Below, piece by piece: positions 1,285-22,448 of a DNA stretch of 24,015 nucleotides. Made by a program: the position numbers and the translations under genes. Numbering within the stretch: the stretch's first letter is position 1; every line of letters starts with the position of its first letter. Source of the stretch: a virus (lineage: Duplodnaviria > Heunggongvirae > Uroviricota > Caudoviricetes); the IMG/VR virus record IMGVR_UViG_2563366887_000004; one strand, 5' to 3'. A model generated the notes under the pieces. It was not told the origin of the DNA. It worked only from the letters and a program-made list of their open reading frames with translations, and did not search any database.

Positions 1285-1887
1285 AATTCACAGGTGTTTT
1301 TTCCCATCCTGTGGTTTCCTTGGCGTTTTCTAGGTTTTTTCAGATAGTTGCATTTTTTAAAAAGCATCCTAAGTTCGATCTCAGTGTCTATCTGGGGCCC
1401 ATTTCTGTCCCATATATGCCCCAAAAAAACTCCTCAACAGATAAGTAGTTTTTTCATGGAGTTACGCGTAAAATCAATAACGGCTGGAAATCATTCAATA
1501 CTCGCACTATCGAAAAATTTACCAGCCAACCGCAGCACGTTCTTGCATAAGGCGTGTCTGCGGTTTTTCAACTATTCAGATACATCACTCCCATCACATT
1601 CATTCCTCCACATCAAAGGCATATAGGCTATATCACCTTGATATTTTTCTTCTTCAGATAAAAACTGTTATCTATGTATACTTTTAAACCCAATCCGTGT
1701 AGAGTCTCTGCATAAGATAGTTTGCAGTTGCCACTTCAGCTTGCGCCATAAACCGCCTGATTTTTGCCGCCATCTGTTAGCATTCCTGTATACCTGAAAC
1801 GACAATGTTTATCTACGAACTTTAAGAACACCCAGGATAAAAATTGTCAACTATATCATATATAACACATTACTAATTCGAGGCTAT

Positions 1888-2001
1888 ATGAACAGCATAC
1901 TGATAATCACTTCGCTCCTTATCATATTCAGCATTTTTAGTCATGCTCTAATAAAATTAGGGATTGGCATATCCAATAACCCAGACAAAACCGATGTATA
2001 A
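1888..2001 (+). CDS. candidate small hydrophobic peptide (37 aa, single predicted TM)
   Basis: ATG at 1888 with GAGG about 7 nt upstream; translation [37 protein letters not shown]. Below the 60-aa cutoff of the ORF track. No homology evidence. Confidence 0.2.
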
Positions 2002-2069
2002 GTCAACATATCCTGAATCAGACATACAATATCGCAATGAAAATCAATAATATTTTAAGGAATATATTC

Positions 2070-2303
2070 ATGAAATCAAAAGACACCCTAAAGTGGTTCC
2101 CTGCGCAGCTTCCTGAAGTCAGAATTATCCTAGGGGATGCTGTAGTGGAAGTAGCAAAACAGGGAAGACCTATCAATACCAGAACATTGCTTGATTACAT
2201 TGAAGGAAACATAAAGAAAAAATCATGGCTGGATAACAAAGAATTATTACAAACAGCGATATCAGTTCTTAAAGACAACCAAAATTTAAATGGTAAAATG
2301 TAA
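2070..2303 (+). CDS. ydfK: YdfK-like small prophage protein (77 aa)
   Basis: ORF-track ORF 2037..2303; the internal Met (MKSKDTLKWFPAQLPEV...) gives a 77-aa product that I recognise as YdfK of Qin. Position between ydfJ and pin matches the Qin gene order. Confidence 0.7.
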   Translation: MKSKDTLKWFPAQLPEVRIILGDAVVEVAKQGRPINTRTLLDYIEGNIKKKSWLDNKELLQTAISVLKDNQNLNGKM

Positions 2304-2619
2304 TATAATAAACTTACTTTTTTATCATTTTTCCACTTTAACAACATTTTGCTCCACTTTTCCACGACCAAACAACTTGAAATCTGGTTAAAATAACACG
2401 CAACACTATTCTTCTTCCTTGAGTCCGCCCGGAACTCGAAAAACAAACCGAGTTAAAGCCATTTTTCACAAAATCGATTTTGGGTCTCACCAAAGTTACG
2501 GGGTTGCATACGCATTCGTTTATTTTCGAACGTGTACATACAAATATGCACAAAAATAATCAAAATTATTTTCTGAGATGCATTATGATATGAACACCAA
2601 TTTCGTATAGAGTCTCACT

Positions 2620-3210
2620 ATGTCTCGAATTTTTGCTTACTGTCGGATATCAACGCTGGATCAGACCACCGAAAATCAACGCCGGGAAATCGAAAGTGCA
2701 GGTTTTAAAATCAAACCTCAGCAAATAATCGAAGAACACATTAGCGGCTCAGCAGCAACCAGTGAGCGTCCTGGTTTTAACCGGTTGCTTGCTCGCCTGA
2801 AATGTGGTGATCAATTGATTGTGACAAAACTGGATCGCCTTGGTTGTAATGCAATGGATATCAGGAAAACAGTGGAACAACTGACCGAAACAGGTATCAG
2901 AGTGCATTGCTTAGCATTGGGGGGCATTGACCTGACCAGTCCAACAGGAAAAATGATGATGCACGTAATTTCAGCAGTCGCTGAATTTGAACGAGACCTT
3001 TTACTTGAACGCACTCATTCCGGGATAGTAAGAGCCCGCGGCGCAGGGAAACGTTTTGGTCGACCACCTGTGTTAAATGAAGAACAGAAACAGGTGGTAT
3101 TCGAACGAATTAAGTCAGGTGTAAGTATAAGTGCCATTGCCCGGGAATTCAAAACCTCGCGGCAAACCATTTTAAGAGCCAAAGCAAAACTTCAGACACC
3201 TGACATATAA
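2620..3210 (+). CDS. pinQ: serine recombinase, Pin/Gin/Hin/Cin-type DNA invertase
   Basis: 196 aa; N-terminal catalytic region [16 protein letters not shown] (active-site Ser in the R-x-S-T motif) and C-terminal HTH; adjacent to tail fibre and tfa genes as in e14/Mu/P1 inversion systems. Confidence 0.9.
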
Positions 3211-3307
3211 AAAATAATCTCGGTGTGAGATGCTTTACGTCTTCCAAGCCCCCTTCCTTGCCGTAAATGGAGAGATACATCTAATTATAGAATTTATATG
3301 TTTTACC

Positions 3308-3883
3308 CTACGGCAGTGCTGGCCATTCAATATCCGGTGCAGTTGATGTATCAACACGGTTCAGCAACACCCGATACTTTTTCCAGGCTTCCAGCAACAA
3401 GGTTTCTTCCTCCGTTGCGATCTCCAGATCCACAGCATCCTGAAGCGGCGCTATATGCTCACTGGCTATCTGCATCAGGCTGTTTTTTGTTTCTTCCGCC
3501 TCCCGGATCCGGAACAGTTTTTCTGCTTCCGTATCCTTCACCCAGGCTGTGCCGTTCCACTTCTGATATTCCCCTCCCGGCGATAACCAGGTAACATTTT
3601 CCGGTAACGGACCGAGTTCAGAAATAAATAACGCGTCCCCTGATGCCACGTCATAAACCGTTTTACCCCGATGATCTTCAACGAGATGCCACGATGCCTC
3701 ATCACTGTTGAAAACAGCCACGAAGCCTGCCGGAATATCTGGCGGTGCAATATCGGTACTGTTTGCTGGCAGACCTGTATGAGGCGGAATATATGCGTCA
3801 CCTTCACCAATAAATTCATTAGTTCCGGCCAGCAGATTATAAATTTTTATGGTCCGTGGTTGTTCACTCATTCTGAATGCCAT
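3308..3883 (-). CDS. tfaQ: tail fiber assembly protein
   Basis: 191-aa ORF immediately downstream of a tail-fibre C-terminal fragment on the same strand; recognised as Tfa-family sequence with the Qin TfaQ length. Confidence 0.85.
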
Positions 3884-4191
3884 TACGCAAGCCTCACAAT
3901 ATAGTTAAATGCGATGTTTTTGACGGTGTTTTCCGCGTTACCAGCAGCGTTAACGGTGATGGTATGTCCATGTGAACCAATCGCAACGGAGTGCGTATGA
4001 GCACCAATGCCGACAGTATGTGCGTGTGCACCTGCGCTTGCAGCAGTACCCGATACAGAGTGCGTATGAGCGCCTGCAGAAGAAGTGTTAACACTGTATT
4101 CAGAATAATCAGGTGATCCACTTCCCGGAGCACCACTGGAACCACCTGAAACAAATGTCATCGAATGGGTATGTGCACCGGCTGTCCCCAT
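3883..4191 (-). pseudogene. stfQ: side tail fiber C-terminal fragment with repeated G-A-H-T-H-S (HxH) motifs
   Basis: 102-aa ORF containing GAHTHS x3 plus GAHAHT and GSHGHT, typical of distal tail-fibre tips; far too short for a complete fibre; abuts tfaQ with a 1-nt overlap. Confidence 0.7.
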
Positions 4192-4480
4192 GCATTTACC
4201 GCCCGGACTGTCAGCCTGTAATTTCCCAGCGCCAGCTGCGTGAAGCGATATGTGGTTTCCGTCGTCCGGGCCGTGCTGACCAACCGCTCACTGCCGTCGT
4301 CCGCTGCCACGGTCAGGCGAAGCATAAAGCTCACCCCCTTCACCACCTTCGGCGTGTCCCAGCGCGCCAGCACCTGGTATTCCCCGCTGTCTGCGGTGAC
4401 TTCTGCGGTCAGGTGCTGAACTGCTGGCGGCGTGACACCATTCACCGTGCCGCTCTGGTCACCGTCAAAGTGCGCCCCGT
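4186..4480 (-). pseudogene. internal fragment of a lambda J-like host-specificity (central tail fibre) protein
   Basis: Translation ...FDGDQSGTVNGVTPPAVQHLTAEVTADSGEYQVLARWDTPKVVKGVSF...[12 protein letters not shown] matches my recollection of an internal region of lambda J; bounded on both sides by frame breaks (junctions with the nohA 3' end and the stf fragment). Confidence 0.6.
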
Positions 4481-4987
4481 TATCAGTTCATCCAGCGCGG
4501 CTGCTTTGTTCATGGCTTTGATGATATCCCGTTTCAGGAAATCAACATGTCGGTTTTCCAGTTCCGGAAAACGCCGCTGCACCGACAGGGGGATCCCGTC
4601 GAGAATACTGGCAATTTCACCTGCGATCCGCGACAGCACGAAAGTACAGAATGCGGTTTCCACCACTTCAGCGGAGTCTCTGGCATTTTTCAGCTCCTGT
4701 GCGTCGGCCTGCGCACGCGTAAGTCGATGGCGTTCGTACTCAATAGTCCCTGGCTGGAGATCTGTCTCGCTGGCCTGCCGCAGTTCTTCAACTTCCCGGC
4801 GCAGCTTTTCGTTCTCAATTTCAGCATCCCTTTCGGCATACCATTTTATGACGGCGGCAGAATCATAAAGCACCTCATTACCCTTGCCACCGCCTCGCAG
4901 AACGGGCATTCCCTGTTCCTGCCAGTTCTGAATGGTACGGATACTCGCACCGAAAATGTCAGCCAGCTGCTTTTTGTTGACTTCCAT
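4442..4987 (-). CDS. nohA: terminase small subunit Nu1 homolog; C-terminal tail replaced at a deletion junction
   Basis: 181-aa ORF MEVNKKQLADIFGASIRTIQNWQEQGMPVLRGG... appears near-identical to lambda Nu1 (from memory) up to ...AALDELI, then diverges (TGRTLTVTRAAR) where the sequence continues into a J fragment. No terminase large subunit follows. Confidence 0.85.
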   Translation of the reverse strand: MEVNKKQLADIFGASIRTIQNWQEQGMPVLRGGGKGNEVLYDSAAVIKWYAERDAEIENEKLRREVEELRQASETDLQPGTIEYERHRLTRAQADAQELKNARDSAEVVETAFCTFVLSRIAGEIASILDGIPLSVQRRFPELENRHVDFLKRDIIKAMNKAAALDELITGRTLTVTRAAR

Positions 4988-6846: not shown

Positions 6847-7075
6847 GCAAAAAAGCTCCCGAAGGAGCCTTCATTTTCACTTTTTTAAATCCAACGACAG
6901 ACGGCTGGCATTTAAGTATTGTGAAATATTATCAAATGTAATCATCATTGATTTACAAAAGATACATTTTGCCCCGAAAGGATTCATGTCAGAAACATCA
7001 AAAGATGATGTTCTATACTGGGAACCATGACAACACGGGCATCTAAAGTGAATATGGTTTGTAATATTGTCTACC

Positions 7076-7288
7076 TCAAAGCGCCACTACATGAACAGCG
7101 GCAGGACCTTTAGGTCCGTTCTCAATACCAAATTCAACTTCCTGATTCTCAGTTAATGTTTTGAAATCGTTGCTCTGAATTGCTGAGAAATGGACAAACA
7201 CATCTTTGCTGCCATCTTTCGGCGTGATGAAACCAAAACCTTTTTCAGGGTTAAACCATTTCACTAAACCAGTCATTTTGTTAGACAT
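7076..7288 (-). CDS. cspI: cold-shock protein (CspA family)
   Basis: 70 aa with RNP1/RNP2-like motifs KGFGFI and VFVHF; sequence [23 protein letters not shown]...; long 5' UTR upstream. Confidence 0.9.
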
Positions 7289-7650
7289 AATTATTACCTT
7301 TTGAAGAAATTAGCCCTTGGGCAGAATGGTCCGAAAAAAAATATCAGAGAGAAAAACCAACAAGGAAATCTCAAGAGGTACAAATAATAAAATTATAACA
7401 ATGACTGCTTCAGATAAATTTGTAACAAACCAGAACACCATTAACGCATGATTAACCACCCATAGCAAGGATTACTTTTGTAAAGAAAAACACAGCAATG
7501 AAAGAATAGCTTTATTTATTAATAAAACGTGTCATTCTGATTAAGACCTTTTATCTTACCCTTAAGATTTCAGGAATTTTGGCTCATGGAAGAGTCCTTT
7601 TTATTTAAATTTTACATTCCGCGATGTAAATGTTCCGATTTAATATTACC

Positions 7651-9680: not shown

Positions 9681-9959
9681 GATTGTGGTGCTTTTTGTGG
9701 GAGTCATCCACTTACGCACTTTGTTTTGCCATGCCAGCAGTTAGCTTCTGCTGTAAAACTATTCATGCAGCAAACCTGCACTTCACCACAATGGTTAGCA
9801 TACTTTTCCTGATTAAGATTTTGCCAAATATGCTAGCCATTGTTTCATGTATTGGACCTCCTTACTTTTTATTAAAGAGATCCAATATTCACTACTCTGT
9901 CCGTATCTCTACTCAGGCATCAGCCTTCTTCGTTATCGTATACAGACGAGCGATGAATT

Positions 9960-10175
9960 TTAATCAGTAATGATGACATTTGCTGCTGCAGGACCTTTAG
10001 CACCACTCTCTATAGAGAAGGTAACCTTTTGACCTTCAAATAAGGTTCGATAATTATCATTCTGAATCGCAGAAAAATGCACAAACACATCTTTACTACC
10101 ATCAACAGGAGAAATAAAGCCGAAACCTTTATCAGCGTTAAACCATTTTACTAAACCAGTCATTTTATTTGACAT
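9960..10175 (-). CDS. cspB: cold-shock protein (CspA family)
   Basis: 71 aa [23 protein letters not shown]...; recognised as the CspB sequence. Confidence 0.9.
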
Positions 10176-10475
10176 TCTACATTCCTTAACTTGAGCCTTT
10201 CGGCATAAATGGTTTGCATAACAGAAACGACTTCGTACTTAATTGGAGAGACTCAAAGAAGGAATAAGTGAATAACACCTGAAATGAGAACTGCTTTAGT
10301 AAACTACTTCGTATATCGTCTGTTCTTCAAACCGACGCAATCATTAACGCATAGTTGAACATATGAAGCAATGTTTATTTTAGACATCCAGCCATCTTCA
10401 ACCCCATCAAAAAACTATAGCTTTCTTCAGGAACGTGTGTATAGTGCGCCAAGTTATCAGTATTAAGGAATTTTT

Positions 10476-11109: not shown

Positions 11110-11740
11110 TTATCTCGTCACCTTCCTCAATTGCGCTTCCGCGTATGCTTCTTCCTGCCAGCACTTTGTTACCAGTTTACCAATGACGTCCGCATACCCC
11201 TTATACCACTGATAATCGGTCAGGTCTGGTACCAGCTTCTGGACATGACGTCGTGCCAGCGTGGTCGGTAAACGACTAAACCGGTTTCCATTACAACGCC
11301 CACAAATCTTATATACCGGTACGCCATGAAACCGGGTTCTTTTTTCATCCAGAACAATCCCTTTACCCTTACACCCTCTGCACGCTGTGCTGGCTTCGCC
11401 CTTACCATGGCAATGCTGACATAGTTCCTTCACCAGAACAGGTCTAAGTAATACCCGCACGTTACCTCCAGATCCGTTGCTGGAAAGTGCGGGACGCACG
11501 TGGTGGGCGTTCGGAATAAGGCAGCCTGACAGAGATTATCCAGTGCCGATAGTCGAGACTGAGAGCTTTCTTAACCTCGAACCCGCGCCTGCGGTAAGAA
11601 TGAATCAGCCATTCGGCCTGTTCTGCAGTGCATGGAGGGTGCTGGAACCATTCAGACTTGAATGCGTGAGAATACCGCCCGTGCGTGCAGGCAAGAACGG
11701 GCGAATTATCAGAATTGTAATATTTTGCGTTGCGTGCCAT
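11110..11740 (-). pseudogene. quuQ: Q-family late antiterminator, split into two overlapping frames (apparent frameshift)
   Basis: The C-terminal ORF (11110..11499) carries lambda-Q-like zinc-finger and C-terminal motifs (CQHCHGKG...CRGCKGKG, CGRCNGNRFSRLP). The N-terminal 92-aa ORF (11462..11740) is in a different frame; the 631-nt span is not a multiple of 3 and together the two pieces total about 210 aa, like lambda Q (207 aa). Confidence 0.6.
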
Positions 11741-12274: not shown

Positions 12275-12430
12275 TTACTCCTCAGGTTCGTAAGCTGTGA
12301 AGACAGCGACCTCCGTCTGGCCGGTTCGGATTCGTACCTCGCAGAGGTCTTTCCTCGTTACCAGTGCCGTCACTATGACGGTTAAACAGATGACGATCAG
12401 GGCGATTAACATCGCCTTTTGCTGCTTCAT
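12275..12430 (-). CDS. hokD: Hok-family type I toxin (51 aa), third gene of the relBEF operon
   Basis: Hand-translated: MKQQKAMLIALIVICLTVIVTALVTRKDLCEVRIRTGQTEVAVFTAYEPEE, stop TAA at 12277..12275. Under 60 aa, so absent from the ORF track; two antisense ORF-track ORFs overlap it and are rejected. Confidence 0.8.
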   Translation of the reverse strand: MKQQKAMLIALIVICLTVIVTALVTRKDLCEVRIRTGQTEVAVFTAYEPEE

Positions 12431-15643: not shown

Positions 15644-15977
15644 GAAAAATCCCCCAGAGAATTGTCTGGGGACATTTTAGAATGGTTCAAAGGGGACATT
15701 ACAGCTTGGTGTTAACAATAGCCTGCTTCTCCGTGCCTTTCGGCACGTAAGAGGCTAACCTACATGTGTCTAGCATGAAATTGGCCTCAGATTAATGTTA
15801 AGCGTCTTGCAGGACGCGTAATGTTAACTGGGGCTTTTCTCTATCTGCCGTTGGTGTCCATGCCCGAGGCAGATAGCCTCAAGCACCCGCAGTCATTCTA
15901 CTTAACTAAGATTTCCCCGCAAACCGTTTTTGTCCAGCACAGTAAATATCCAACTAAACCAATGGAGTTCGCTGTAT

Positions 15978-17309: not shown

Positions 17310-17666
17310 TTAAAAAATCAGAACGCCGTGCGGCCTCAACACCCGAAAGGCTTCTTTAAATCTCTGTCGCGAATCATCACGCCAGGCATCTTTATTCAGC
17401 CGTCCATATTTCTTTCCCATCCAGGCGTTATCACCAACACTCTCAAGATGCGGAGGGTCTAATACAACCATCGAAAAAGATGCGTCTGCAAATGATAATG
17501 CACGAAAATCTGCGATAATGTCAGGGCTGATAATCAAGCGTCTCCCATTGCGTAATGTGTATCCTTCTTTTCTGATATCGCTGAATATCGCCCGTTCGTC
17601 AGACTTATCGAACCAGAACATGCGGCTGCCACAGCACATATCAAGAATGGTTGCCGGTGCACTCAC
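17310..17666 (-). CDS. small amino-methyltransferase, likely phage DNA N6-adenine (Dam-like) methylase; possibly truncated
   Basis: 118 aa with SAM-binding motif I-like ILDMCCGS and a DPPH (NPPY-type) motif about 60 residues later, ending ...LRPHGVLIF; GTG start overlaps the stop of the upstream ORF (translational coupling). Confidence 0.55.
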   Translation of the reverse strand: MSAPATILDMCCGSRMFWFDKSDERAIFSDIRKEGYTLRNGRRLIISPDIIADFRALSFADASFSMVVLDPPHLESVGDNAWMGKKYGRLNKDAWRDDSRQRFKEAFRVLRPHGVLIF

Positions 17667-17929
17667 TGCGCCACGTCCTGAAAATTACCCTGATAGAAAG
17701 CCAGTATGCGCTGCATAACTTCGCTCTTCCGGCACTCGCGACAGATTATGTTTAGGCGACTGTCGTAGCGACGTATTTCTCCGTCAGGTGATGACCAGAT
17801 AAGGTCCGGATCAACCACAGCAGGTTTCTTCACCTTTGCCCTCGAGAGTTTTTTGCGGGCGTTTTGCCAGTCCTTACGCGCCTGTTCAGAGGGGAATAAC
17901 CCGTATCCGGAGCTTAAGTTGCACGCCAT
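17663..17929 (-). CDS. hypothetical protein (88 aa) upstream of and coupled to the methyltransferase
   Basis: ATG-initiated ORF with protein-like basic/charged composition and a CxxC pair (CRECRK); its stop overlaps the methyltransferase GTG start. Its 5' end overlaps the divergent exonuclease-gene frame. Confidence 0.35.
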   Translation of the reverse strand: MACNLSSGYGLFPSEQARKDWQNARKKLSRAKVKKPAVVDPDLIWSSPDGEIRRYDSRLNIICRECRKSEVMQRILAFYQGNFQDVAQ

Positions 17930-18283
17930 TGGGTGGGTTAAGCATAAATGTATTCCTGGTGCTAAATGGCCCGAAATTCAGGCAGAGATGCGCATCTGGA
18001 AAAAACGTCGCGAAGGTGAACGCAAGGAAACCGGAAAATACACGTCTGTTGTTGATCTCGCCCGCGCCAGAGCCAATCAACAGTACACTGAAAATTCAAC
18101 AGGAAAAATCAGCCCGGTCATTGCTGCCATTCATCGCGAATACAAGCAGACATGGAAAACACTGGATGACGAACTGGCCTACGCTCTCTGGCCTAGTGAT
18201 GTGGATGCCGGAAACATTGACGGCAGCATCCATCGCTGGGCAAAAAAAGAAGTTATCGACAACGACCGCGAAGACTGGAAGCG
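17853..18283 (+). pseudogene. 5' part of an insertion-disrupted exonuclease-family gene (upstream of the IS600-like insertion)
   Basis: Open frame from 17853 (TTG) with a candidate ATG at 17988; the frame runs into the IS terminal repeat, which supplies the last five codons (EVYWQ*). Continues in-frame at 20771 once the IS and one copy of the GCG duplication are removed. Confidence 0.6.
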
Positions 18284-18326
18284 TGAGGTGTACTGGCAAT
18301 AGCGGACACTACCATTTGTTCTTTTT

Positions 18327-19145
18327 TTAAGCAGCCATCTGATGATATTTTTCCCTGAAGGCTGCCGGGGAGATATTCCCCAGACGAGAGTGACGACGCT
18401 GACGATTGTAGAAAATCTCAATGTATTCCCGTATTACTGAGATGGCTTCATCCCGGTTATTAAAACGATAGTGGCTCAGGCTCTCATTTTTCAGCGTTCC
18501 CCAGAAGCTTTCCATCGGAGCGTTGTCGTAACAGTTACCTTTACGCGACATTGATGTTTTCAGACCAAACTGCTCCTGTATGACCCGGTAATCGTATGCG
18601 CAGTACTGTGAACCTCGATCAGAGTGGTGGATTAGCCCGGCAGGTGGGCGCTGGCTCCTGAGCGCCATAAACAGGGCTTTACCTGTCAGCTCTTTTGTCA
18701 TGCACTCTCCCATGGCGTAGCCGACAATTTCGCACGTATAAACATCTTTGATGCCAGCGAGGTACAACCATCCCTCCTGTGTGGCAACATACGTCAGGTC
18801 CGCCACCCAGACCTGATTTGGTGCTGTAGGAGCGAACGTCTGGTTCAGCAGATTTGGCGCAACTGGCAGATTGTGGTTCGAGTTCGTAGTCGCTCTGAAC
18901 TTGCGTTTCTGCTTACAGCGTAGCCTTAGCTCCTTACGAAGACGTGCCAGTCGGTCACGACCAACGATGATGCCATTCTCTGCCAGCTCCGTCTGGAGCC
19001 GCCGGGTTCCATATGTTTCGCGAGTGCGGATATGTGCCACCTTAATCTCCAGTTTTAGCCGCTCATCACTTTGTTTTCTGTCTGAGGGTTCATGCTGTAC
19101 CCAGTTGTAATAACCGCTCCTGGATACACCAAATACCTGACACAT
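18327..19145 (-). CDS. IS3-family (IS600-like) transposase OrfB, DDE catalytic domain
   Basis: 272-aa ORF MCQVFGVSRSGYYNWVQHEP... with DDE motifs (WVADLTYV, HHSDRGSQY, NCYDNAPMESFWGTLK); the frame overlaps the 3' end of orfA as expected for a -1 frameshift fusion. Confidence 0.85.
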   Translation of the reverse strand: MCQVFGVSRSGYYNWVQHEPSDRKQSDERLKLEIKVAHIRTRETYGTRRLQTELAENGIIVGRDRLARLRKELRLRCKQKRKFRATTNSNHNLPVAPNLLNQTFAPTAPNQVWVADLTYVATQEGWLYLAGIKDVYTCEIVGYAMGECMTKELTGKALFMALRSQRPPAGLIHHSDRGSQYCAYDYRVIQEQFGLKTSMSRKGNCYDNAPMESFWGTLKNESLSHYRFNNRDEAISVIREYIEIFYNRQRRHSRLGNISPAAFREKYHQMAA

Positions 19146-19222
19146 CGCTTCAATGGGAAATTGTTGTCGCCATTGTTCGATTAACGCGTATTTTTCAGCG
19201 ACTCCTGTGCAAAATACGCTGT

Positions 19223-20443
19223 TGTAGATTCAATCTGTCAATGCAACACCCCTTTCAATTATCTCTTTCGGTGTTTTGAACTTCAGTGTCTTTCTCGGTC
19301 TGTTGTTTAGCTGAGCAGCAACCAGATCTAGTTCATGTTGAGTATATTGGGCAAGACATGTCTTTTTAGGAAAGTACTGCCGAATTAGCCCATTTGTGTT
19401 CTCATTTGTTCCCCGCTGCCAAGGACTCTGAGGATCGCAGAAGTAAACTTTAACGCCGGTGCTGACAGTAAATTCTAGATGTCTGGCCAGTTCCATTCCT
19501 CTGTCCCATGTCAGTGATTTTCTGAGTTCTGACGGTAAACTCAGGAATTTGTCGGTAAGAGCCTGATTTACTGAGACAGAATCTTTGCCCCTGAGTCTAA
19601 GGATGATCGTATAACGTGATTTTCGGTCTACAAGTGTGGCTATATGAGAGTTTTTTGTACCTGAGACTAAATCGCCCTCCCAATGTCCCAGAGAGCGTCT
19701 GTTATCGATATTTCGGGAACGTTCGTGAATTGGTGTTCCGTTCACTATGTTAATCGTACCTCTTTCGCCTTTGCGGGTATGACGCCTGCCATGGCGAAGG
19801 CTATGCGACCGTCGCAGATGCTGTATATTCAGGTGGTGTAGCGCTTCACGGCTACGAAAGTACAGCGTTTTATAAATTGTCTCAGGTGATATTCGCAGCG
19901 TTTTTTGACGTGGTTTTGTTCGCCTTAACCATCCTGATATTTGCTCTGGAGACCATTTCATCTCCAGCTTTTCCAGAACAAGCTTTCGCAATGGTAAATT
20001 TTGATCCAGTAAGCACGGTTTTGGCCTTTTCGCCATTCTGTTGGCTCGGTTATTAGCATCAACAGCTTTGTAATAGCGTCTGCCCCGATTACGCTGAACT
20101 TCACGTGAGATCGTCGAAGGACTGCGATTCAGCGCAGTAGCTATCGCACGAATGCTCATTTTGGCTGACAAACCAGCTCGTATCTCCTCGCGCTCAGACA
20201 GTGTCAGGTGAGCTACAGCCCGCTTACGCTCATGGGGTTTTATGCCGCCAGTATCCCTTAACATAGTGAAGATCGTTCCGGGTTTTGAACCCAGGATATT
20301 CGCTATTTCACTGAAGCCTGTTCCGTTCTTCCATAGTTCAAAAACAGAGGCTTTTTCCTCTGCTGTAAATGTTCGTCTCATTCAAAAAACCTCCGCAACC
20401 CCATGTTTTCACATAACTGTTGCGTTGACCAATTGAATCTACA
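19223..20443 (-). mobile_element. IS30, complete (1221 bp) with terminal inverted repeats and 2-bp target-site duplication GT
   Basis: Ends TGTAGATTCAAT... (19223) and ...ATTGAATCTACA (20443); the 20443 end on the minus strand reads TGTAGATTCAATTGGTCAACGCAACAGTTATGTG, matching the IS30 IR as I recall it; length exactly 1221 bp; GT at 19221-19222 and 20444-20445. Confidence 0.9.
19230..20381 (-). CDS. insI: IS30 transposase (383 aa)
   Basis: 383-aa ORF MRRTFTAEEKASVFELWKNGTGFSEIANILG... recognised as IS30 transposase; lies within the IS30 boundaries. Confidence 0.95.
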   Translation of the reverse strand: MRRTFTAEEKASVFELWKNGTGFSEIANILGSKPGTIFTMLRDTGGIKPHERKRAVAHLTLSEREEIRAGLSAKMSIRAIATALNRSPSTISREVQRNRGRRYYKAVDANNRANRMAKRPKPCLLDQNLPLRKLVLEKLEMKWSPEQISGWLRRTKPRQKTLRISPETIYKTLYFRSREALHHLNIQHLRRSHSLRHGRRHTRKGERGTINIVNGTPIHERSRNIDNRRSLGHWEGDLVSGTKNSHIATLVDRKSRYTIILRLRGKDSVSVNQALTDKFLSLPSELRKSLTWDRGMELARHLEFTVSTGVKVYFCDPQSPWQRGTNENTNGLIRQYFPKKTCLAQYTQHELDLVAAQLNNRPRKTLKFKTPKEIIERGVALTD

Positions 20444-20770
20444 GTTGCTTTTTTTAATATATCTCGCTCAAGGCGAGCTTCATTTAACGCCTTACGCAGT
20501 TGCAGAATTTCAGATTCCAGTTCAGCCACCGTGCGGGAACCAGGAGTACCGAGCCCTTTTCTGGCGGCGGTAACCCATTGTCCTAAAGTGCCTTCAGGAA
20601 GAGATAATCGGGAAGCGCCTTCACTGATCGAAAGTTGATTTTCAAGAACCGTTCTGACAGCTTCGGCTTTGAACTCTTTAGAGTAACGTTGGGTTTTTCT
20701 GCTCATTATTAGCTCCTTCTGATGCCATTCTATTTCAGGAAGGAGTGTCCGTTAAACTCAGGCTACCTCA

Positions 20771-22376
20771 GCGTATCTCGGCATCAATGCGCAAACAGCC
20801 TGATGCCCTTCGCTACGACCGCCAAACTATTTTTGGCCTTGTCCGTGAGCGTCCGATCGACATTCACAAAGATCCCGTAGCACTGAACAAATATATCTGC
20901 GAATACCTGACGACAAAGGGCGTGTTTGAGAATGAAGAAACAGACCTGGGCACTGTTGATGTTCTCCAGTCATCAGAAACACAAACTGATGCAGTGGAAA
21001 CTGAGGTATCTGATATCCCAAAAAATGAAACCGCGCCGGAAGCTGAACCATCTGTAGAGCGTGAGGGGCCGTTCTATTTCCTCTTCGCAGATAAGGACGG
21101 AGAAAAATACGGTCGCGCAAACAAACTCTCTGGTCTGGATAAGGCACTGGCTGCTGGCGCCACTGAAATCACAAAAGAAGAATATTTTGCCCGAAAAAAT
21201 GGCACATACACGGGCTTACCGCAAAATGTAGATACCGCTGAAGATTCAGAACAACCAGAGCCGATAAAAGTTACCGCTGACGAAGTAAACAAAATTATGC
21301 AGGCAGCCAATATCAGCCAGCCTGACGCCGATAAGTTGCTTGCTGCATCACGTGGTGAATTTGTTGAAGGGATTAGTGACCCGAATGATCCGAAATGGGT
21401 TAAGGGGCTCCAGACCCGCGATTCTGTGAACCAGAACCAGCATGAATCGGAACGGAACTACCAAAAAGCGGAACAAAACAGTCCAAATGCGTTACAAAAC
21501 GAGCCAGAAACGAAACAGCCTGAACCAGTAGCGCAACAGGAAGTGGAAAAAGTCTGCACCGCCTGCGGTCAGACCGGCGGCGGCAACTGCCCTGATTGTG
21601 GCGCGGTGATGGGCGACGCAACATACCAAGAAACATTCGATGAAGAGTATCAGGTTGAAGTTCAGGAAGATGATCCGGAGGAAATGGAAGGCGCTGAACA
21701 TCCACACAAGGAGAACACTGGCGGCAATCAGCATCACAATAGCGATAATGAAACTGGCGAGACGGCAGATCACCCAATTAAGGTGAACGGTCATCACGAA
21801 ATCACATCCACCAGCAGGACGTGTGACCATCTAATGATCGACCTTGAAACCATGGGAAAAAATCCTGATGCCCCGATCATCTCAATAGGTGCAATATTTT
21901 TCGATCCGCAAACCGGAGATATGGGACCGGAATTTAGTAAGACTATCGATCTGGAAACTGCTGGCGGAGTCATTGATCGGGACACCATTAAATGGTGGCT
22001 TAAGCAATCACGCGAAGCGCAATCTGCCATTATGACCGATGAAATCCCGTTAGATGATGCACTGTTACAATTGCGAGAATTTATCGACGAAAACTCCGGT
22101 GAATTTTTTGTTCAGGTTTGGGGAAATGGAGCCAACTTCGACAACACGATTTTGCGCCGTTCATACGAACGGCAGGGGATCCCCTGCCCGTGGCGTTACT
22201 ACAACGATCGCGATGTACGCACAATCGTTGAGCTGGGGAAAGCCATAGACTTCGATGCCAGAACGGCTATTCCATTCGAAGGTGAGCGCCATAATGCACT
22301 TGATGACGCCCGTTACCAGGCAAAATACGTTTCAGTTATCTGGCAAAAACTGATCCCGAGTCAGGCTGATTCTTAA
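20771..22376 (+). pseudogene. 3' part of the insertion-disrupted gene: acidic linker, C4 zinc ribbon and C-terminal DEDDh 3'-5' exonuclease domain
   Basis: In frame with 17853..18283 across the IS. Contains CTACGQTGGGNCPDCG (zinc ribbon) and exonuclease motifs Exo I MIDLETMG, Exo II WGNGANFDNTIL, Exo III HNALDDARY. The ORF-track start at 20745 is a GTG inside the IS terminal repeat and is artefactual. Confidence 0.65.
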
Positions 22377-22448
22377 TGTTCAACTGTCGCCGGTTGTGAC
22401 TGGTATTCTGCAACCGGCGCTCGTCTGATGTAAGAGATAAAGAAATCG

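Follow-up and report, generated by a model that had tools for sequence, protein, structure and literature searches.

Nested insertion of IS30 into IS600 within a truncated exonuclease gene of a Qin-like cryptic prophage

Within the stretch of viral DNA analysed here (24,015 nucleotides, hereafter the window), a complete IS30 lies inside an IS600, which in turn lies inside what is left of a prophage exonuclease gene (Table 1). We consider it likely that this arrangement arose as a Qin-like cryptic prophage, situated between ydfJ' and rspB, decayed step by step, with a truncation of the gene coming first, the insertion of IS600 second and that of IS30 last. Sequential insertion is supported by sequenced genomes in which each of the earlier states is found, and the order of the steps would follow from the nested series that these states form. 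In the first step, a rearrangement would have cost the exonuclease gene its first 163 codons, removed the dicB-ydfD region upstream of it as well, and left the remainder of the gene joined at position 17903 to a DUF977/methyltransferase segment. IS600 would then have inserted behind nt 869 of the dead gene, duplicating GCG, and IS30 would subsequently have entered IS600 at nt 326-327, duplicating AC (GT on the plus strand of the window). Being a pseudogene already, the host gene would have suffered no further loss from the two insertions. The structure as such is already known and annotated, and it is a case of ordinary genome decay.

Table 1. Features of the nested insertion and of the interrupted gene, in window coordinates
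Feature	Position	Strand	Remarks
Exonuclease, upstream fragment	17903..18283	+	codons 164 to 290 of an 823-aa gene; start and first 163 codons gone
GCG duplication made by IS600, left copy	18281..18283		single GCG in the uninterrupted gene
IS600 including IS30	18284..20770	-	2487 bp with IS30
IS600, distal part (nt 326-1264)	18284..19222	-	end of orfA/orfB overlap, orfB, right inverted repeat
orfB, ATG-delimited ORF	18327..19145	-	Pfam rve, HTH_21
GT duplication made by IS30, left copy	19221..19222		single GT in AST198
IS30, complete	19223..20443	-	1221 bp, read from sequence
IS30, right inverted repeat	19223..19248
IS30 transposase CDS	19230..20381	-	single intact 383-aa ORF
OrfA'-IS30 read-through ORF	20338..20706	-	OrfA residues 1-87 plus 35 residues from the IS30 end
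IS30, left inverted repeat	20418..20443
GT duplication made by IS30, right copy	20444..20445		single GT in AST198
IS600, proximal part (nt 1-325)	20446..20770	-	left inverted repeat; orfA start at 20706
A7 slippery run	20449..20455		IS600 nt 316-322; IS30 target dinucleotide 3 nt downstream
GCG duplication made by IS600, right copy	20771..20773		single GCG in the uninterrupted gene
Exonuclease, downstream part	20771..22376	+	codon 290 to stop; Rv2179c-like 3'-5' exoribonuclease domain

The inner element shows the hallmarks of the IS30 family, namely a length of about 1.2 kb, inverted repeats of about 26 bp, an ORF for a DDE transposase, a 2-bp duplication and near-identity to the K-12 copies. 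Its terminal inverted repeats (TGTAGATTCAATCTGTCAATGCAACA and TGTAGATTCAATTGGTCAACGCAACA) agree at 23 of 26 positions, and the transposase carries the Pfam domains HTH_38 (1.6e-23) and rve (4.1e-14). IS30 cuts its target with a 2-bp stagger and transposes by a copy-out-paste-in route (PMC9333248). The GT duplicated here reads AC on the sense strand of IS600, and the IS30 gene runs in the same direction as the IS600 genes. The IS30 of K-12 (IS30A/C/D; insI) shares the 1221-bp length, the 26-bp inverted repeats, the 383-aa DDE transposase and the 2-bp duplication, so that in these features location alone sets the window copy apart, the K-12 copies lying in IS911A, in ydbA and between IS911B and an IS600 remnant. 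At the nucleotide level, the window copy differs from IS30A/C/D at 2 to 3 positions in 1221; from IS30C and IS30D it is separated by two synonymous changes, the protein being identical. The element is intact and may be active.

The outer element was recovered by removing IS30 and one GT in silico, which leaves a 1264-bp IS600 (18284..19222 plus 20446..20770) with TG...CA termini (TGAGGT...ACCTCA) and imperfect inverted repeats matched at 19 of 27 positions. In the excised element orfA returns to 100 aa, ending in DILKKATAYFAQESLKNTR before the stop, and the restored OrfA is recognised as Pfam HTH_Tnp_1; as read from the sequence, the -1 frame after the A7 run leads into orfB by a predicted frameshift. 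An earlier sequence-only reading had described this element as IS600-like; its assignment stands, but the likeness understates the case, the element being IS600 proper at 99.9% identity to copies on Shigella sonnei plasmids (e.g., NC_016833.1), with 1 mismatch in 1264. The alignment against reference elements that the same reading had proposed as a check thus returned near-identical matches for both IS600 and IS30. Length, ends, orfA/orfB frames, slippery heptamer, 3-bp duplication and near-identity to Shigella copies all agree with IS600 of the IS3 family. Compared with the IS600 of Shigella sonnei, with which it has in common the 1264 bp, the TG..CA ends, orfA and orfB in the 0 and -1 frames, the A7 run and the 3-bp duplication, the window copy differs in its interruption by IS30 at nt 326-327 and in a private missense change in orfB (R148C, at 18704). 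In FORC_081, PGAP labels the distal stretch "IS3-like element IS600 family transposase, partial".

Because IS30 comes between orfA and orfB and parts the A7 slippery site from the latter, the OrfAB fusion transposase would be abolished, and this loss weighs more than the removal of the last 13 codons of orfA. With both of its ends kept, the window IS600 would be immobile unless another copy supplied OrfAB.

The surrounding DNA corresponds, at 100% identity, to the Qin region (ydfJ' ... xis-int, adjoining rspB) of E. coli genomes. In the identical region of FORC_081 and SHP24, the PGAP annotation gives integration in ydfJ by rspB, cspB/F/I, relBE and hokD, as well as the lysis genes essD-rrrQ-rzpQ and xis-int. 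An Rfam scan of the window returned no RNA family in 17900..22400. E. coli C carries an intact exonuclease gene of 2472 nt downstream of dicB-ydfD; the window differs from it in lacking codons 1-163 and the upstream dicB-ydfD and in carrying the nested insertion sequences. The upstream fragment is identical to E. coli C L005 (2420..2801) at 382 of 382 positions, the breakpoint at 17903 corresponds to nt 489 (codon 164) of the intact gene, and the joined fragments match residues 164-823 of the E. coli C protein WP_081508834.1 (823 aa) with 99.85% identity. The C-terminal domain is detected as PF16473 (1.8e-67).

Joining the flanks leaves the host reading frame uninterrupted (...EDWKR-ISASMRKQ...), and the joint is identical at 600 of 600 positions to uninterrupted genes; the claim that both the orfA frame and the host frame are restored was borne out. 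The further expectation that excision would yield a continuous ORF holds for the frame but not for the gene: codons 1-163 are absent upstream of the breakpoint, and removal of the insertion sequences would not restore the gene, since these codons were lost earlier. Indeed, at least 25 genomes carry the 5' truncation without any insertion sequence, which indicates that the exonuclease gene was already dead when IS600 arrived. The insertions also account for three annotation artefacts of the clade, two of which had been correctly recognised from the sequence: the EVYWQ tail, which closes ORF 17853..18302, and the apparent GTG start of the downstream half at 20745, which lies within IS600. The third is the 122-aa OrfA'-IS30 read-through ORF.

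A junction-specific query of 5426 complete genomes places the nested state at the prophage locus in exactly 33 of them, which come from many hosts and countries and include several NCTC collection strains; it may serve as a lineage marker. A larger figure, the 205 genomes matching 80% or more of the window, was discarded as a count of the nested insertion, as the remaining genomes share the prophage only. The nested junctions bear directly on the possibility of an assembly artefact, in which repeated IS sequences, classic sites of misassembly, would have been chimerically joined. The junctions are base-identical in 33 independently finished genomes from different laboratories, the two copies of each duplication agree exactly, and so do the empty sites, base by base, so that we regard such an artefact as next to inconceivable. 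The insertions are clade-wide rather than strain-specific. The earlier description of them as relatively recent is therefore apt as far as the near-zero divergence goes, and otherwise does not hold for a state common to 33 genomes from so many sources.

The three structures and all of the precursor states are observed, the groups comprising 33 nested genomes, two with IS600 only (AST198 and H3) and about 45 that are truncated and free of insertion sequences. The host joint without insertion sequences is found 600/600 identical in many genomes and is at least 80% covered in 3550; the truncated joint without insertion sequences is 784/784 identical in the at least 25 genomes mentioned above. AST198 carries an intact IS600, annotated with a programmed frameshift, at the identical site in the truncated context, with one GT in place of the GT-IS30-GT of the window, and H3 carries IS600 without IS30 at the prophage site, with an apparent 3-bp deletion. 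Since real empty sites thus exist at both levels, the boundaries of the elements do not depend on short repeats alone, and those proposed for IS30 (1221 bp, GT/GT) and for the outer element (1264 bp after excision, GCG/GCG) were right to the base. Two other candidates for the IS600-only intermediate were set aside: in EH031 the IS600 lies elsewhere in the gene (267 nt in) and the match consists of two joined BLAST pieces, and 7_26_9A, with a similar two-piece match, was left uncounted.

IS30 is reported not to excise precisely and not to regenerate its hot-spot target (PMC9333248). On this published evidence we rejected precise excision of IS30 as the origin of AST198, and take AST198 to precede the insertion rather than to have reverted from it. 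It is perhaps not a simple ancestor, as its IS600 differs from that of the window at three orfB positions, where it has the alleles 18495A, 18704G and 18755T, compared with one difference in about 4.5 kb of flanks, and this IS600 may have been converted by another copy of the element.

The occupation of IS600 nt 326-327 by IS30 is far from confined to this prophage. The IS600-IS30 junction as it stands in the window is found at unrelated loci, its left side in 1070 genomes and its right side in 1237, and a synthetic query for the junction in the opposite orientation is matched at 400 of 400 positions in 588 genomes; in FORC 064, a full IS30 in the opposite orientation, with its GT duplication, was confirmed at the IS600 site. 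Taking both orientations, IS30 is present at this site in about 1/5 to 1/3 of complete genomes. That IS30 enters the site in either orientation is a direct observation, and its recurrent presence there through repeated insertion is close to certain.

This recurrence complicates the reading of the duplications. A pre-formed IS600::IS30 composite of 2487 bp might have inserted in the prophage in a single event, mobilised by OrfAB supplied in trans from another IS600, in which case this insertion would have made the GCG duplication, and the GT duplication would be inherited from an older IS30 insertion elsewhere. Strain 439 indeed carries the complete composite beside sat, with its own GTT/GTT duplication and with an IS30 identical to that of the window at 1221 of 1221 positions, including an A at nt 758 that is absent from the other copies compared, and the junction occurs at several loci in more than 1000 genomes. 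However, independent hits on the hot spot explain the strain 439 composite equally well, and the many loci require no movement of the composite as a unit, because the opposite-orientation insertions prove that the IS600 site is hit independently. Moreover, AST198 and H3 carry IS600 without IS30 at the exact prophage site, from which IS30 would not have been lost precisely (PMC9333248), and FORC_081, nested at the same prophage locus, has an IS30 allele different from that of the window. A comparison of IS600 copies from the window, AST198, H3, EH031, strain 439, W5-6 and an ETEC plasmid yields no position that tells composite from intact elements, so that single-nucleotide differences have no power to distinguish movement as a unit from independent hits; the IS30 alleles are likewise uninformative on this point. 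All considered, we judge single-event arrival improbable. The sequence-only reading had taken the two intact duplications as a sign of two sequential insertions; the insertions themselves are supported by the empty-site genomes, but the duplications alone are no proof of two events here, because the composite is also found elsewhere, with a GTT/GTT duplication of its own. More generally, where a hot spot exists, target-site duplications alone fix neither the order nor the place of events.

Related arrangements in K-12 and other strains illustrate how these elements combine. In the K-12 IS911A::IS30A (insN split by insI1), IS30 stands just past the A6G slippery run, with an AC duplication and in the same relative orientation as in the window, at the IS911 position homologous to the IS600 site (TTAAAAAAGGCT followed by AC); it differs in that the host element is IS911 and lies within the CP4-6 prophage. 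In the KpLE2 region of K-12 the order is IS911B, IS30D, a 327-bp IS600 remnant (insM) and IS911B, with the left end of IS30 joined to IS600 nt 1-327 exactly as in window 20444..20770, whereas the other end of IS30D adjoins an inverted part of IS911 orfA. The 327-bp stretch beside IS30D (nt 1-327, AC included) is annotated simply as "IS600" (insM). Recombination between two IS30 copies, each inserted at a hot spot, produced this arrangement. Its reciprocal counterpart, in which IS911 orfB, IS30 and IS600 orfB follow one another, is found in W5-6, in 30COLEC and in an ETEC eltAB plasmid, and the presence of reciprocal hybrids in K-12 and W5-6 shows that IS911/IS30/IS600 copies recombine.

Such exchange raises another alternative to direct insertion, in which IS30 reached the prophage IS600 by homologous recombination or gene conversion from a composite located elsewhere in the cell or on incoming DNA, through IS600 arms of 939 bp and 325 bp, or in which AST198 lost IS30 by conversion from an intact IS600. 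IS600 copies are many and nearly identical, of the four positions at which AST198 and the window differ three are clustered in IS600 orfB, IS30 alleles are shared independently of locus, and the reciprocal hybrids of K-12 and W5-6 testify to recombination of this kind. On the other hand, no donor copy was identified, the result would be structurally the same as that of direct insertion, and direct insertion at a hot spot, which is demonstrated for the IS600 site, suffices. We therefore see little likelihood in conversion, and retain truncation followed by the insertion of IS600 and then of IS30.

As an example of cryptic prophage decay by truncation and subsequent nested insertion, the window carries little general weight. 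Of possible specialist interest is that IS30 repeatedly lands 3 nt beyond the slippery run in both IS600 and IS911. Known targets of IS30 are near-palindromic hot spots and the inverted repeats of the element itself (PMC9333248), and a target motif was derived from our data on six independent sites. One half-site of the IS600 target, TTAAAAAAAGCA directly followed by AC, resembles half-sites at the IS30 insertions in IS911, ydbA, late-control-D and nfsA-rimK, a resemblance that points to sequence-directed hot-spot targeting. It is conceivable, although we put it forward with some doubt, that the region 3' of the slippery A-run in IS600 and IS911 (TTAAAAAA(A/G)GC(A/T) followed by AC) constitutes a natural high-affinity IS30 hot spot that has not yet been described. 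If so, IS30 would recurrently and site-specifically disable the unrelated IS600 and IS911 across E. coli, one mobile element systematically inactivating another, and its copies at such sites would seed IS30-mediated inversions, as in KpLE2 of K-12, making it a source of IS30-flanked inversions. The palindromy of the IS600 target is modest, with 7 of 12 inner positions symmetric. Scored with a crude, symmetric weight matrix derived from five other IS30 targets, the IS600 site ranks 8th of 22,762 window positions, and 24th of 22,762 when IS911 is left out of the matrix.

A complete IS30 lies within IS600, which itself lies within a fragment of a prophage exonuclease gene, and both levels have exactly the boundaries that a sequence-only reading had claimed. 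GT directly abuts the two ends of IS30 (19221-2 and 20444-5), and GCG flanks the outer element, spanning 18284..20770, at 18281-3 and 20771-3. To judge by its sequence, IS30 is intact: its terminal inverted repeats agree at 23 of 26 positions, its transposase has HTH_38 and rve domains (Pfam), and the only two base differences from K-12 IS30C and IS30D are synonymous, leaving the same protein. The outer element, with TG..CA termini and imperfect inverted repeats, had been described as IS600-like. Its IS3-family identity holds, and a 99.9% identity over the full 1264 bp with IS600 copies of Shigella sonnei plasmids points to IS600 itself; against the consensus of the other compared copies, the sole difference is a private R148C in orfB, at 18704.

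Coordinates of the two elements and their reading frames in the window
Feature	Position	Strand	Size	Remark
IS600, restored	18284..19222 + 20446..20770		1264 bp	after removal of the 1221-bp IS30 and one GT
IS30	19223..20443		1221 bp	read from the sequence
IS30 transposase ORF	19230..20381	minus	383 aa	intact
Hybrid ORF	20338..20706		122 aa	truncated orfA plus 35 codons from IS30

As had also been claimed, joining the flanks restores both interrupted frames. The restored orfA has 100 aa and ends in ...DILKKATAYFAQESLKNTR*, orfB follows in the -1 frame, entered via an A7 run at IS600 nt 316-322, and the domains found by Pfam are HTH_Tnp_1 in OrfA and HTH_21 with rve in OrfB. Because IS30 stands between orfB on one side and orfA with the slippery site on the other, this copy would be unable to make OrfAB, although its intact ends make mobilisation by the transposase of another copy conceivable. 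The two elements are co-oriented, so that the IS30 transposase gene might receive read-through from IS600. In the host gene, in silico removal of IS600 with its IS30 and one GCG fuses ...EDWKR and ISASMRKQ... in frame, and the EVYWQ* tail and the GTG start at 20745, rightly suspected to be artefacts, are both encoded by IS600. The frame is continuous, as expected, but a complete gene is not recovered, since the gene had been truncated before IS600: excision gives back a reading frame, not a gene. Homology to the intact exonuclease gene starts only at 17903 (nt 489, codon 164), upstream of which lie a DUF977 fragment and, on the opposite strand, a SAM-dependent methyltransferase gene, while the C-terminus retains a Rv2179c-like 3'-5' exoribonuclease domain (Pfam, 1.8e-67). 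The fragment and the methyltransferase gene stand in place of the dicA-dicB-ydfD region of E. coli C; the joint at 17650..17945, around this breakpoint, contains no IS and is also present in genomes lacking the nested insertion.

Four states of the locus occur among 5426 complete E. coli genomes. The intact gene is found in E. coli C as an 'exonuclease' gene of 2472 nt downstream of dicB-ydfD; the IS-free joint matches it, and many other genomes, at 600/600 positions, and is covered by at least 80% in 3550 genomes. A query joining the breakpoint to the IS-free joint detects the truncated gene without IS, with 784/784 identity in at least 25 genomes; 80 genomes reach at least 80% coverage, 35 of them IS-bearing, which leaves about 45 that are IS-free. 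IS600 alone occurs in strain AST198, intact, at the exact site and within the truncated gene; the GT that the window has on both sides of IS30 is present there only once. Finally, a junction-specific query finds the nested state in exactly 33 genomes, from humans, pigs, chickens, a dog, an opossum, a crow, food and several NCTC collection strains. A whole clade, not a single strain, carries the nested insertion, whose presence in 33 independent finished genomes excludes an assembly artefact.

IS30 transposes by a copy-out-paste-in mechanism with a 2-bp staggered attack on the target, and its hot-spot target is not regenerated through precise excision (Olasz laboratory, PMC9333248); on these grounds the IS600-alone state is most readily taken for a precursor. 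Gene truncation, then IS600, then IS30 would be the most economical order, one in which IS600 landed in an already dead gene. The two duplications had been taken as a sign of two sequential events; AST198 supports that order, but duplications alone do not prove that the events were local. A pre-formed IS600::IS30 composite may have arrived as one unit, or IS30 may have been gained or lost by recombination between IS600 copies. The IS30 of a composite in strain 439 is identical to that of the window, AST198 and the window show four differences, three of them within orfB, and reciprocal IS911/IS30/IS600 hybrids indicate that such copies do recombine; SNPs have no power to separate the two routes. 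With four corrections, the sequence-only interpretation of successive insertions is supported. Strain H3 (NZ_CP028732.1) resembles AST198, plus a 3-bp deletion precisely at the IS30 target (about 2695..2700 of the extracted locus, window 19220..19222 / 20446..20448), where ACGCTGTTGC becomes ACGCTGC; candidate causes are an imprecise loss of IS30 that left this footprint, slippage at TGTTG and a sequencing error. An independent IS600 interrupts the same exonuclease gene in EH031 (1762..3025 of its locus) at a different point, about 267 nt in.

The exact IS600/IS30 junction is far commoner than the window locus, its left side being present in 1070 genomes and its right side in 1237, and it turns up at loci with no relation to this one. 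Strain 439 carries its complete composite adjoining sat, with its own GTT/GTT duplication; the junction adjoins eltAB in an ETEC plasmid and the fec operon in W5-6; and in K-12 an annotated 327-bp 'IS600' remnant (insM) abuts IS30D. A junction constructed for IS30 in the opposite orientation at the same IS600 dinucleotide matches 400/400 in 588 genomes, and FORC 064 has a complete 1221-bp IS30 so oriented, with the same GT duplication, in an IS600 adjoining a porin gene. As IS30 is found in both orientations, the site has been struck at least twice independently. On the sense strand of IS600, this IS30 hot spot has AC (nt 326-327) as its target dinucleotide, 3 nt beyond the A7 run. IS30A of K-12 occupies the homologous position in IS911, where AC follows TTAAAAAAGGCT, as it follows TTAAAAAAAGCA in IS600, and a comparable half-site lies one base away from the duplication at the independent IS30 sites in ydbA, a phage late-control-D gene and the nfsA-rimK spacer. 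In a crude symmetric weight matrix from five other IS30 sites, the IS600 target ranks 8th among 22,762 window positions (24th without IS911). Half-site and rank appear to fit the described hot-spot targeting by IS30, despite only moderate palindromy. The recurrent use of IS600 and IS911 frameshift regions by IS30, in both orientations, is the sole mildly novel angle here; we found no description of it in the searchable literature, though older papers may well contain one.

In K-12 (NC_000913.3 4507125..4509801), IS30D lies between part of IS600 orfA and an inverted part of IS911 orfA, and the reciprocal arrangement, IS911 orfB, IS30 and IS600 orfB, is seen in W5-6, 30COLEC and the ETEC eltAB plasmid; together they bear the marks of an inversion in which two IS30 copies took part, each already inserted in an IS3-family hot spot. 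In O157:H7 TR01, an oppositely oriented IS30 within IS600 is in turn split by ISEc8, of the IS66 family (3262..4558 and 7000..7247 of the locus), a third nesting level, adjoining chromosomal traT.

The structure itself was already known: the two insertion sequences and the cryptic prophage around them are textbook cases, RefSeq annotates the arrangement, and the same IS30/IS600 junction is annotated in K-12. The whole window is a Qin-like prophage, from a ydfJ fragment to xis-int, adjoining rspB, with about 100% identity to many E. coli chromosomes. The NCBI pipeline already has four features at the locus, 'IS3-like element IS600 family transposase (partial)', 'IS30-like element IS30 family transposase', 'transposase (partial)' and '3'-5' exoribonuclease domain-containing protein (partial)'. 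Elsewhere in the prophage, hokD (about 12275..12430) may not be the only hok/sok-type locus: Rfam matches a sok antitoxin RNA at 15717..15888 on the minus strand, with 104 bits against a gathering score of 59, in a stretch where PGAP has no feature and whose neighbours are a fragment of an ISNCY transposase and a hypothetical gene with a frameshift. Most relatives that are otherwise identical, SHP24 among them, have 1465 bp that the window and FORC_081 lack at about 11110..11460; through this deletion ydfT, the Q antiterminator gene, has lost its 5' part and ydfU is gone entirely. Two cspA-type thermoregulator leaders, upstream of cspI and cspB, and an IS009 sRNA candidate (7049..7434, 9944..10336 and 3342..3540, all on the minus strand) appear to be ordinary Qin content.
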